Assembly: GCA_964016885.1 (NCBI GenBank)
Contig: OZ024759.1
Coordinates: forward strand, 16,802,001 to 16,866,000
Source: Eledone cirrhosa
Taxonomy: Eukaryota
Direction of reading: 5' to 3'
Length of the DNA stretch: 64,000 nt
This document shows positions 48,169 to 54,050 of the stretch, one piece after another. Position 1 is the stretch's first letter. Each line of letters starts with the position of its first letter. The translations under genes were made by a program, and so were the position numbers. The notes below the pieces were generated by a model. The model saw nothing but the letters and a program-made list of their open reading frames with translations. It did not search any database and had not been told where the DNA came from.

Positions 48169-48343
48169 CCCTCGCTATATATATTGGTTAGTTAGCTACT
48201 ACTGTCTTAGAGCCATATATATAAGTTATTCCGGGTTGAATCAGGGGTAACCACAGTAAGTAAGGTACTCAATACATAGCAGAGTATAAAAGTTTTAATA
48301 TAGTAAAGCTTCTACAGGACTAGAACTGTTTCATTCGTGAGAG

Positions 48344-48394
48344 AGCTTCCTGATGATTTCTCACAAATGAAACAGTTCTAGTTCTGTAGAAGCT
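48344..48394 (+). ncRNA. Minimal type I hammerhead ribozyme motif (family A), sense to tankyrase
   Basis: Stem I AGCTTC/GAAGCT, core CTGATGA (48350-48356), GAAA, stem III ACAG/CTGT, GUA site at 48388. Stem II weak. Confidence 0.7.
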
Positions 48395-48419
48395 TTTCTA
48401 TATTAAAAAATATATATAT

Positions 48420-48830
48420 ATCACCTTGATCACCTTGACACCGACCAGTCTGTCGGGCGCCACTCGGCGCCGCTGGTCACAGCACGTTGCTGTTTTAGCC
48501 ATACGATGACGCCATCCCACTGGCTGGGCGGGCAGGCCGTAAGTCTAAAGTCTGTCTTTCTTAAGCCAGAAGGCTCATTTGGCCAGTGCTTATCCCGGCT
48601 TCATGGCGTGAAGCGACTGAGAGCACAAGACTCCCCCCCGGACAGGGCGCCAGTCCATCGCAGGGTTAAACCTCCAGCTATTGCTGGTACTCATTTTCAG
48701 CTGAGTAAATTGGAGCAACGTGAAATAAAGTGTCTTGCTCAAGGAAACAACACATCATCCGGTCCGAGAATTGAACTCACAACCTTTTGATTGCAAGCCC
48801 AATGCTCTAACCACTAAGCCATGCACCTTC
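48420..48830 (-). mobile_element. CORE-headed SINE with V-domain-like body
   Basis: Family-1 tRNA/CORE head (48700-48830) followed by CCCTGCGATGGACTGGCGCCCTGTCC. Confidence 0.6.
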
Positions 48831-49261
48831 ACATATATATATATATAAATAATTACACACACACACACATATATATAAATACATACACACACATATATAT
48901 ATATGGAGGCCAATGGCTTAGTGGTTAGAGCATTGGCCTTGCAATCGAAAGGTTGTGAGTTCAATTCTGAGACCAGGTGATGTGTTGTTTACTCAGCTGT
49001 AGAAATGAGATGATAGGGACTGGGGTCCCTATTATTCCACTGCATAGTGGTCGTGGAGGTGCCACGGCAAAAAAGCACCCAGCACTCACTGTAAACGAGG
49101 TTGGTGTTAGGAAGGGCATCCAGCTGTAGAAATCAAGCCAGAATCGGTTCCCGTCCCACCCTTGCAAGCAGGGAAAAAGGGGACGTAAAATAAAATGAAT
49201 GATGAAATGATATATATATATATAGTTACAATAGTGGCATAAACAGGTACTTAAATTTCCT

Positions 49262-49369
49262 TGGGTTCTGGACCCCAACTCATTCAGCTTGTCATAAGCA
49301 AAATAAAAATAAAGATCTTTATTTTCATTTTGCTTATGACAGGATGAATGAGTTGGGGTCCAGAACCCA
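49262..49369. repeat. Spacerless ~108-bp near-perfect palindrome
   Basis: Centred on AAAGATCTTT (49311-49320). Arms TGGGTTCTGGACCCCAACTCATTC... / ...GAATGAGTTGGGGTCCAGAACCCA. Confidence 0.9.
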
Positions 49370-49412
49370 GAGTGCTCTTGCCCTTTGATATTACTACCAA
49401 ACTTTTACCACA

Positions 49413-49447
<35 letters not shown>

Positions 49448-49451
49448 TGAG

Positions 49452-49494
49452 ATTCTACAGGACTAGAACTGTTTCATTCATTAGAAATCATCAG

Positions 49495-49498
<4 letters not shown>
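49452..49498 (-). ncRNA. Minimal type I hammerhead ribozyme motif (family A)
   Basis: Minus strand ATTC-CTGATGA-T-TTC-taat-GAA-T-GAA-ACAG-ttctagtc-CTGT-A-GAAT. All three stems pair. Confidence 0.75.
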
Positions 49499-49548
<50 letters not shown>

Positions 49549-52063: not shown

Positions 52064-52128
52064 TATTTTGTCTGATGAAGGCATACCATAATTTAATTTG
52101 GTATCCCTGAAATATGTATAATGAAATA
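52064..52128 (+). ncRNA. Type I hammerhead ribozyme motif (family C), sense to tankyrase
   Basis: Stem I TATTTTGT/ATGAAATA, CTGATGA (52072-52078), stem II AGG.ATACCA/TGGTAT.CCT, GAAA, short palindromic stem III ATA-TG-TAT, AUA site at 52120. Degenerate sister copy at ~30617-30677(-). Confidence 0.75.
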
Positions 52129-52256
52129 AATATGGTTTTATAAATATAGTTTCCATTTATTAATATCGTATATCTACTCCAAATACTTGTCGAGTGTTTT
52201 ATATCAGTTATAAAAATATTTACTTGTTGTATCCCAACAATTTTAAATAGAACTTT

Positions 52257-52291
<35 letters not shown>

Positions 52292-52919
52292 TCATCATCA
52301 TCATCATCGTTTAACGTCCATATTCCACGCTTGGATGGGTTTGGACGGGGGTTTTCCCACTTGAGGCAAGAGTGGTTGTCTTGCTCGCATAGGACTGTCT
52401 GGCGGGTTTTCTACGGCTGGATGCCCTTCCTAGCACCAACCACGTTTACAGTGTGGGACTGGGAGGTTTTTACCGTGTTACCTACACGGCCACATTACAG
52501 CGTGGACTGTGTGTTTTTTTTTGTTGTGACACCTACACGACCTCATTTGTTTCGGGCTGGATGTTGTGACACCAACATAACTTTACATTGAAGGGGTGGT
52601 GTGGATGGGGTGGGGGTAGTGGGGCGGGGTGTATTTTGTTAGAGGTGCCTACTGACTGTAGTAGGTTTCACTTTGTACTTAAGTAAGGCGGGTCTTCTCT
52701 ATTACTGTGTAGCGCCAAAGCTCTCGGTCCAGTATATATATATGTATATATATGTATAATATATGTATGGCCAACCAACGCAGGCTGGATATAGAACATG
52801 GTAGCATGGAAAATGGACGTTAAACGATGATGATGTATATTATATATGCATGCATATATATATGTATAGTCTCAGCTGGATGGCGGGAACATGTAAAAGA
52901 GTATATGTGTATGTATGTA

Positions 52920-52976
<57 letters not shown>

Positions 52977-53120
52977 TTTCATGAAATGATATATATATAT
53001 ACACATACATAGTAATAATAATAAAATTGAAGACTAAAATCCAAAGAGGGCTCGATAAGGAAAATATATATCAAATATATAAGAACCGTAGAGCAAATAT
53101 TTATTAAAATAACAGATTAA

Positions 53121-53171
53121 AGTTTAAGCAAAGAATCGCTGCTTTCACCCTTAACGGGATCTTCTGAAACT
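53121..53171 (-). ncRNA. Hammerhead-like motif with variant core CAGAAGA (family B)
   Basis: Minus strand AGTTT-CAGAAGA-T-CCC-gttaa-GGG-T-GAA-AGCA-gcgattctt-TGCT-T-AAACT. Confidence 0.6.
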
Positions 53172-53175
53172 AACA

Positions 53176-53212
<37 letters not shown>

Positions 53213-53281
53213 TACATTATATATATATATAATTATAAAATAACAGGAGGCTGGACTGGTGTAATTCCTTGAAGGTTTATT

Positions 53282-53339
53282 ATACTATGAACATTTCAAT
53301 GACCGGGTTCAGTATGCATCCGGTGACATCATCAGGTAT
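53282..53339 (-). ncRNA. Type I hammerhead ribozyme motif (family D)
   Basis: Minus strand ATAC-CTGATGA-tgtc-ACCGG...CCGGT-catt-GAA-ATG-tt-CAT-A-GTAT followed by AATAAA. Confidence 0.68.
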
Positions 53340-54050
53340 TCGAAATTTAACAAAGGAATATAATAGACACAATCCATGGGGCTGAAAAGGCAGAGAGACA
53401 AGAAGGCGGCCAAACATTTAGCAGTTTCTAGTCCGGGTCGGCCGCCCTCAAGTGAGGACTACTAAGTCTTCTTATGTCTTTCTGGTGAAGGGACATAAGC
53501 TTATAGTGTACTACTACCACTGTGTCATGGACAGAGGCTAGTGGTGGGATCAGGTTATATTGAAGTTGGTCAGAAGTGCTAAAAAGTGCTAAGAAATATA
53601 TTTTTTCAAAAAACATATATCTTTAACAAATCTATATATAGTGGATGGCCGTTGAATCGTTAGTTCCGCCACCCTTTGATGGGTTTAGTTTTTCATCCCA
53701 CAGGATGTCTAAAAATTTCCCTTCTTACCAAGCAAGCAAGCTTGGCGGGATTACTATTTTAGTCACTGGCAACCCAACCATGCAACAGGTTGTATTGAGT
53801 TACATGTTACATGTTATTAGTAGCACTCGAGGGCCACCTGACCTAAAAATTAAATATAGTGTATATCGTTAAGAAAAGTGTTAATCAAAACAGTCAGTTA
53901 AGTCAGTTACCATTTATACTCAGTTACATAAGCATATATATTTATGCGTGTATATATATGAAGTGTGTATGTATATGTATGATATGTGTATGTATATTAC
54001 ATACATGGTATATGTATATGCACGCAAATATATATATATATATATATATA

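Follow-up and report, generated by a model that had tools for sequence, protein, structure and literature searches.

Penelope-like elements (PLEs) of the Hydra clade have been described as carrying a C-terminal nuclease, DKT and RWK motifs, a CxCx5C linker and canonical hammerhead ribozymes and as inserting at (TA)n targets; Hydra-1_Obim of Octopus bimaculoides is listed among them (Craig et al. 2021, PMC8557442). Across metazoan PLEs, minimal type I hammerheads are reported in the pseudo-long terminal repeats (pLTRs), with thousands of solo copies per genome and, in helix III, a palindrome that favours pairing as dimers (Cervera and de la Pena 2014, PMC4209133). These ribozymes have been proposed to process precursor RNA and are possibly parasitic (PMC8557442), and the hammerhead of one PLE is dispensable in vitro (PMC11167929). 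Here we analyse a 64-kb stretch (the window) of the 3.0-Gb genome of the octopus Eledone cirrhosa, which carries tankyrase exons on its + strand and, in tankyrase intron 2, five hammerhead motifs. We consider it highly probable that these motifs are the 5′-truncated 3′ ends of four PLE families (A to D), likely of the Hydra clade, that were inserted into (TA)n, likely from uncut RNA, and that they sit in the intron as passengers without a role in tankyrase.

Five hammerhead motifs and their parent elements

Family A is represented by both of its subfamilies. A long-tail copy of subfamily A1 (48224..48343, − strand; all positions are those of the window) retains the 3′ tail and the 3′ half of the hammerhead, is truncated in loop II with no CUGAUGA, and is 93% identical over 118 nt to the upstream pLTR of a full-length element, L258. 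Head to head with it lies an inverted short-tail A1 copy (48344..48410, +), which contains the hammerhead at 48344–48394 (predicted cut after 48388) and is 85–86% identical to parental pLTRs; the arms of this pair span 48285–48349 and 48352–48416. The short-tail solo fragment of subfamily A2 (49444..49498, −; hammerhead 49452–49498, predicted cut after 49456) lies between two (TA)n runs and is 100% identical over 58 nt to both L258 pLTRs. Family B is present as a long-tail 3′ end (52000..52260, +) whose hammerhead (52064–52128, predicted cut after 52120) has a palindromic stem III of the dimer type; it matches the pLTRs of the open reading frame (ORF)-bearing copies L201 and L203 at 98–99% over 261 nt, and 40 scored B copies are 99–100% identical. 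The long-tail 3′ end of family C (53011..53175, −), which matches 166 nt of the upstream pLTR in full-length L209 at 100% identity, has a hammerhead-like fold at 53121–53171 with site position 53126 and the core CAGAAGA at 53166–53160, in which U4 is replaced by A. Family D contributes a short-tail 3′ fragment of a non-autonomous 2-kb element (53229..53644, −; hammerhead 53282–53339 with a near-palindromic stem III, predicted cut after 53286) that is 81–86% identical to the full units L368 and L369.

All five motifs form a three-way junction with stems I, II and III, a GAAA box and an NUH site. A relaxed descriptor matches exactly these five in the window (cores at 48350(+), 49494(−), 52072(+), 53166(−) and 53335(−)), in agreement with the preliminary description of this DNA, which had named five type I hammerheads; its cut positions at 48388, 52120 and 49456 likewise agree with the sequence. 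Because the descriptor was tuned to pass all five window motifs, its shuffle control matters: it found no match in five shuffles of a 600-kb genomic sample (sixty 10-kb stretches at round coordinates), against 26 in the real sequence. A stricter descriptor recovered four of the five, missing 48344+, whose stem II has only two pairs after a U–U. Dinucleotide shuffles of the region gave exact-core matches in 0 of 200 (three observed) and, with one core mismatch allowed, a single match in 8 of 200 (four observed).

Sequence comparison argues for the fold through a conserved core held within differing stems, and through covariation. The stem I change noted earlier in family A proved to be a real subfamily difference, A–U versus C–G; for one stem I pair, 90 distinct contexts comprise 36 A–U, 34 C–G, 12 A–G and 8 others, a set that comes from searches aimed at each subfamily and represents one evolutionary event. 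Some of the mismatched contexts are copies in which an inversion junction has replaced the 5′ strand, and in the 49452− copy the outer stem I A abuts (TA)n and could derive from either. In B-like stem II, both sides change in seven of nine pairs, including four of the six distal pairs that the descriptor does not demand, among 25 sequences picked from 48 descriptor matches. A U–U precedes stem II in A, C and D, a mismatch that is tolerated (Perreault 2011, PMC3088659) and that recurs in the Hydra hammerheads of File S2 of PMC8557442.

Two general statements about the motifs need qualification. The CUGAUGA-type core attributed to all of them holds for A, B and D, the 53121− motif of family C having CAGAAGA instead. 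A short palindromic stem III, expected for dimer-acting hammerheads (PMC4209133), is present in B and in D, where copies range from perfect to near-perfect palindromes, whereas stem III is a 4-bp helix in A and a 5-bp helix in C. All four families keep helix III (segments of 8–17 nt with 3–5 outer pairs), unlike minimal hammerheads as strictly defined, which have none; they also differ from the motifs described in PMC4209133 in having U at position 11.1 rather than the usual G10.1–C11.1 pair, and the core variant given there is U3–A8, against A4 in family C.

The window motifs adjoin no reverse transcriptase (RT) ORF, as the preliminary description had observed, but the linked Penelope RT and GIY-YIG ORFs that it proposed to look for were found in full-length genomic copies of A, B and C. 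Four distinct hammerhead families of PLE type are upheld. A, B and C are identified from sequence as fragments of autonomous PLEs with hammerhead-to-hammerhead units of 3.2–6.0 kb, which does not fit the small elements first proposed; D is itself 2 kb long. The parents share the layout hammerhead, RT/GIY-YIG ORF, long 3′ untranslated region (UTR), hammerhead. In family C, the full-length L182/L209 carries a 713-codon frame between motifs 3.24 kb apart, and 89 scored copies, many without stops, are 95–100% identical over 477 amino acids. In family B (L173, L201–L203) a 746-codon frame lies between motifs 3.5–4.2 kb apart, with 92 scored copies at 91–100% identity, and L258 of family A has a 713-amino-acid ORF, starting from Met, between motifs 5.97 kb apart.

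The three proteins are 39–51% identical to one another, and 1,249 homologues in the database reach E ≤ 1e-20; of the 120 listed, 119 are nameless and one has a gene id only. Each single ORF is predicted to encode a telomerase-like RT followed by a GIY-YIG nuclease, the nuclease assigned by the motif Y[IV]G...R...H and the RT fold from an AlphaFold model of the C protein (predicted local distance difference test score 73.8, predicted template modelling score 0.48), for which telomerase RTs were the top six PDB matches (E 5e-9 to 2e-7). RT and nuclease pieces beside some A and D loci (L010, L037, L044, L093, L097, L212) were rejected as parents: they lie beyond microsatellites or inversion junctions and were not seen to run on into the motif. 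Fragments of further PLE-like RT and GIY-YIG types, apparently not Hydra, occur near TA-targeted copies at L010, L037, L107 and L150. Contigs of four sequencing runs, compared with a full-length C copy, covered the whole element only for X24, whose run type is unrecorded, and are uninformative on RNA ends.

The family D unit measures about 2.05 kb (2.0–2.1 kb) and has the layout of A to C without the ORF. Homology among D copies ends about 2 kb upstream; there, 19 of 30 loci have a second D tail directly abutting the start of the body. The longest stop-free frame in three full units is 107–109 amino acids, and D is non-autonomous. A link to the Hydra-type nuclease remnants found upstream was considered and rejected, as D homology does not reach past about 2 kb and the remnants are not the same from locus to locus. 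Within the non-coding D body at L267:7170–9100, a stretch of about 230 nt is directly repeated at about 75% identity and is GC-richer than its surroundings.

Families A, B and C likely belong to the Hydra clade, an assignment based on motifs. YRDD is present in all three proteins, as are the CxCx5C linker and the nuclease CxxC and CxH. DKT, replacing DKG, occurs in A and B and, within C, in L184, with NKT in L182; B has the N-terminal GxKF/Y as GIKF at residue 85, and no CCHH motif was seen by eye in the nuclease; in the Hydra clade GxKF/Y is not conserved and the nuclease lacks CCHH. The families resemble Hydra-clade PLEs (PMC8557442) in their single ORF of about 710–745 amino acids with RT and C-terminal GIY-YIG-type nuclease, in DKT, CxCx5C and (TA)n, in a 3′ type I hammerhead with a U–U before stem II and 3–5 bp of stem III, and in forming partial tandems as well as inverted 5′ copies that bear a tail on one side. 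Such tandems, inverted copies and one-sided tails, along with pLTRs, are present in all four families. The reported association with (TA)n was borne out in the 600-kb sample, where each of the 14 full-tail ends of A, B and C is followed by (TA)3, as are 11 of 20 short-end motif matches, a set that includes internal passes of full-tail copies.

The suggestion that the families are undescribed stands in part. Their kind, Hydra-clade PLEs with (TA)n and hammerheads, has been described, whereas an exact search of the supplement of PMC8557442 for six motif strings did not recover the present families, though line breaks could hide matches there. Hydra-1_Obim has a different hammerhead and protein sequence, and neither the CAGA-core family C nor the ORF-less 2-kb family D was found in the examined parts of the text and supplement of Craig et al. 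2021. On this comparison the four are new octopus families of an already described kind, namely Hydra-type PLEs.

Copy ends and a proposed insertion mechanism

We examined where copies end, using chance-met copies, that is, loci fetched for other families or by position. Their 3′ ends are bimodal, measured from the cut site: +29 and +105 in C, about +20 and +91 in A, +56 and +135 in B, and about +55 and +190 in D. Head-to-head pairs have exactly one long tail in 34 of 35 cases in A, 7 of 8 in C and 13 of 15 in B; the A set is biased, many of its pairs having come from a query of that shape. A 5′ end within 6 nt of the cut site was found in only 1 of 69 C copies, 1 of 29 A copies, 3 of 47 B copies and 2 of 9 D copies. 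Instead, 5′ ends cluster at the core's 5′ edge in C (22 of 69) and A (15 of 29), and 60–140 nt upstream of the cut site in B; the A figure may be too high, since upstream of the core A1 copies differ from the A2 reference. The same 5′ pile-up appears in loci selected by pattern, each of which necessarily includes some of the motif (12 of 30 for C, 15 of 30 for A). Templates of cut RNA are not supported by these 5′ ends; together with the changed C core, this fits transposition from uncut RNA, which we regard as likely. The fold may cause the RT to stop, and short palindromes at the junctions could also account for the pile-up.

A Poseidon-clade PLE of Anolis (PAc) offers a template for how such ends could arise. 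In vitro, its RT starts at two internal sites in the RNA, giving a tail, both strands are cut and extended at AT-rich DNA, uncut RNA is the main template, and hammerhead mutants are without effect on insertion (Frangieh et al. 2024, PMC11167929). By analogy, the PLE protein, predicted to be a dimer in the lizard element, would nick AT-rich DNA on both strands, and reverse transcription would start at one of two internal RNA sites, which would account for both tail lengths and for the inverted pairs. Copying would usually stop early, leaving a hammerhead plus tail, and new insertions would land in TA runs beside old ones to build clusters such as that in the window. Family D would depend on protein supplied by an autonomous family. 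Within full-length RNA, the hammerheads of A, B and D would probably cut weakly, as dimers or with help from the protein.

Several points weigh against the assignment to Hydra-type PLEs copied from uncut RNA. The mechanism is borrowed from another clade: the PAc hammerhead overlaps the start of the ORF, whereas those here end 100–200 nt before it, and the in vitro data concern PAc only (PMC11167929). The clade call is motif-based, with Hydra-1_Obim compared by eye in the supplement. RWR stands in place of RWK in A, C and most B copies (RWK is present in 7 of 8 database homologues aligned), and units of 3.2–6.0 kb with long 3′ UTRs exceed the usual <3 kb; a very high copy number is a further difference from described Hydra-clade PLEs (PMC8557442). 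Pfam returned no family for the B and C proteins and only a weak GIY-YIG match for A (E 0.012), and PDB sequence searches did not recognize the RT of these proteins. An Rfam scan, proposed in the preliminary description, gave no hammerhead match at the gathering threshold or at E ≤ 10, and the folding energies of the isolated motifs do not stand out from those of shuffled sequence (z −0.93 to +0.85). No autonomous partner of family D was identified.

The changed core of family C and rival explanations

Of 14,817 exact matches to the family C motif, 14,687 have A at core position 4 and the other 130 have C, G or T; of 100 listed non-A matches, about 37 have T by hand count, so the canonical base looks like background mutation. 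A4 is also found in every motif seen at 20 RT-selected C loci (one of which showed no motif), including both pLTRs of a copy with an unbroken ORF. CUGA is found in a related family whose stem II is similar. Pairwise mutagenesis of a type III hammerhead gave low activity for every single or double CUGA mutant apart from the C3–G8 swap (PMC9901934), and on this ground the C hammerhead is probably impaired, cutting poorly or not at all. A search of the literature found no report of a natural A4 core; it did not cover the variant-listing figures of PMC3088659, which may include position 4. Nor did it return any octopus hammerheads beyond Craig 2021. At L133 and L135, core position 4 is the centre of a short TTC-N-GAA palindrome on which head-to-head junctions are centred, giving a canonical core on one strand and an A4 core on the other; speculatively, the element's own inversions may have created the A4 variant.

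We advance tentatively, as a reading we hold to be less than probable, that family C represents a naturally occurring catalytic knockout, in which a young autonomous PLE made tens of thousands of copies with a dead core and a preserved fold, the fold rather than the cut being required by these elements. On the same tentative footing, the fold would pair two RNAs through the palindromic stem III and halt or flip the RT at its 5′ edge, which would explain the pile-up of copies and the inverted junctions at the fold edge. If true, this would provide an in vivo answer to what PLE hammerheads are for.

It is alternatively possible, if doubtful, that family C is an active natural core variant in which A4 is tolerated with the aid of a stable 5-bp stem III, a dimer or the protein, and that cleavage matters in all four families. 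The stems of C are intact, its stem III segment is near-palindromic (homoduplex −12.9 kcal/mol), and A4 persists in L316, a diverged C copy whose loop III is different and whose stem I is longer; natural core variants of low activity exist (PMC3088659), and one PLE hammerhead cuts only with its protein (PMC11167929). This has to be set against the low activity of CUGA mutants other than the C3–G8 swap (PMC9901934), the Hydra and Chlamys hammerheads of File S2, which all begin with ctga (PMC8557442), and the lack of a genomic footprint of cut templates in the copies analysed here.

The window motifs could also be small non-autonomous retrozymes, tandem units of 170–400 nt that are cut by their hammerheads and circularized, but we judge this very improbable, and for A, B and C it is already largely refuted. 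The window copies are indeed short (55–416 bp) with no ORF nearby, and a 2026 preprint derives animal retrozymes from PLE pLTRs (bioRxiv 10.64898/2026.07.22.740005). Against this, the tandem arrays that the preliminary description led us to look for are absent at the window copies, 5′ ends lie anywhere between 0 and >1400 nt upstream of the core, as truncation would leave them, and the A, B and C fragments are 93–100% identical to the pLTRs of ORF-bearing elements (A2, B, C and the A1 long-tail arm). Family D comes closest to described animal non-LTR retrozymes (PMC7229834; bioRxiv 10.64898/2026.07.22.740005), being non-coding and non-autonomous, with a type I hammerhead and head-to-tail repeats in the form of partial tandems; it differs in its unit of about 2.05 kb, five times the described size range (PMC7229834), in its dispersed partial tandems and truncated ends, and in having no multimeric array in the loci examined.

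Abundance, the tankyrase locus and wider meaning

Genome-wide, family A gave 12,322 pattern matches (31 nt, exact or near-exact), with 1,970 for an A1-specific pattern, and the motif count of family C was higher at 33,606 (34 nt, ≤1 mismatch); reversed-pattern controls for both gave 0. With its changed core, family C has reached at least 15,000 motif copies. These are counts of motifs rather than insertions, because inverted pairs count twice. For B and D there are candidate counts only (1,482 and 4,726). The 26 motifs of the 600-kb sample divide into 16 in 200 kb of C20, the window's contig, 5 in 200 kb of C1–4 and 5 in 200 kb of other contigs, a density of roughly 2.5–8 hammerhead-like motifs per 100 kb. 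When the sample is divided into 120 bins of 5 kb, 104 are empty and the maximum is 4. Five motifs in 5.1 kb are thus a hot spot, picked after the fact, in a motif-rich genome and chromosome. At L304–L363 and other loci there are roughly a dozen additional hammerhead families, whose stems are distinct and some of which have palindromic stem III segments of 4–6 nt.

The placement of the cluster in tankyrase intron 2 (42025–57089) was confirmed by the in-frame joining of exon 2 (41800..42024, +), which encodes ankyrin repeats, to exon 3 (57090..57185, +); a further exon at 11102–11315 joins both in frame, and exon 2 matches a tankyrase of Octopus sinensis at 100% identity and that of O. bimaculoides at 97%. 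That the cluster serves the host, its hammerheads cutting or regulating tankyrase pre-mRNA, is scarcely credible: the 48344 and 52064 motifs are sense to tankyrase and five motifs exceed the sampled maximum, but three of the five are antisense, 48344+ is predicted to be locked with the left arm in a 65-bp hairpin (48285–48416, −71.4 kcal/mol, z −16) with hammerhead pair probabilities of 0.0 in context, 52064+ depends on a dimer partner and in context forms stem I with a probability of about 0.02, the one further B-like match that the window contains is a degenerate antisense copy, 3 of the 120 bins hold at least three motifs, and the B and C copies are 98–100% identical to dispersed ones and therefore recent. 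Cutting of tankyrase pre-mRNA is, on these predictions, unlikely.

Other repeats share the locus. Beside the A2 fragment, 49262–49369 forms a near-perfect 108-nt hairpin (54-nt arms, 94% complementary, no spacer), with no similar sequence in any other locus collected in this analysis. An inverted pair at 48742–48993 and a further copy at 50928–51061 belong to a repeat with weak tRNA matches around a TA/CA run, probably a tRNA-derived short interspersed element. Intron 1 holds an inverted family A pair (12553–12674), an inverted family C pair (15667–15807) and a degenerate B-like copy (30615–30677), as well as, identified by eye, a broken non-LTR retrotransposon ORF with a VDD-motif RT and a C-terminal restriction-like domain (34426–37688) and a broken mariner-like transposase (17732–18706, −). 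Long homogeneous minisatellites lie at 19141–22475 (43 nt × 78, 95% matches) and 57603–63997 (48 nt × 135, 97%).

For tankyrase itself the insertions are probably without consequence. For the genome, they indicate that Hydra-type PLEs make up a large and recently active part of an octopus genome that standard Rfam and Pfam scans miss at the level of RNA motif and protein alike; the main text of a 2026 octopus repeat annotation makes no mention of ribozymes or the Hydra clade (PMC13282606). A single genome here offers a comparison set: young families with intact ORFs and canonical cores (A and B), an abundant young family with a changed core (C) and a dependent family without an ORF (D). Taken together, the core of C, the ORF-less D and the 5′ pile-up at the fold would make the role of PLE hammerheads testable.

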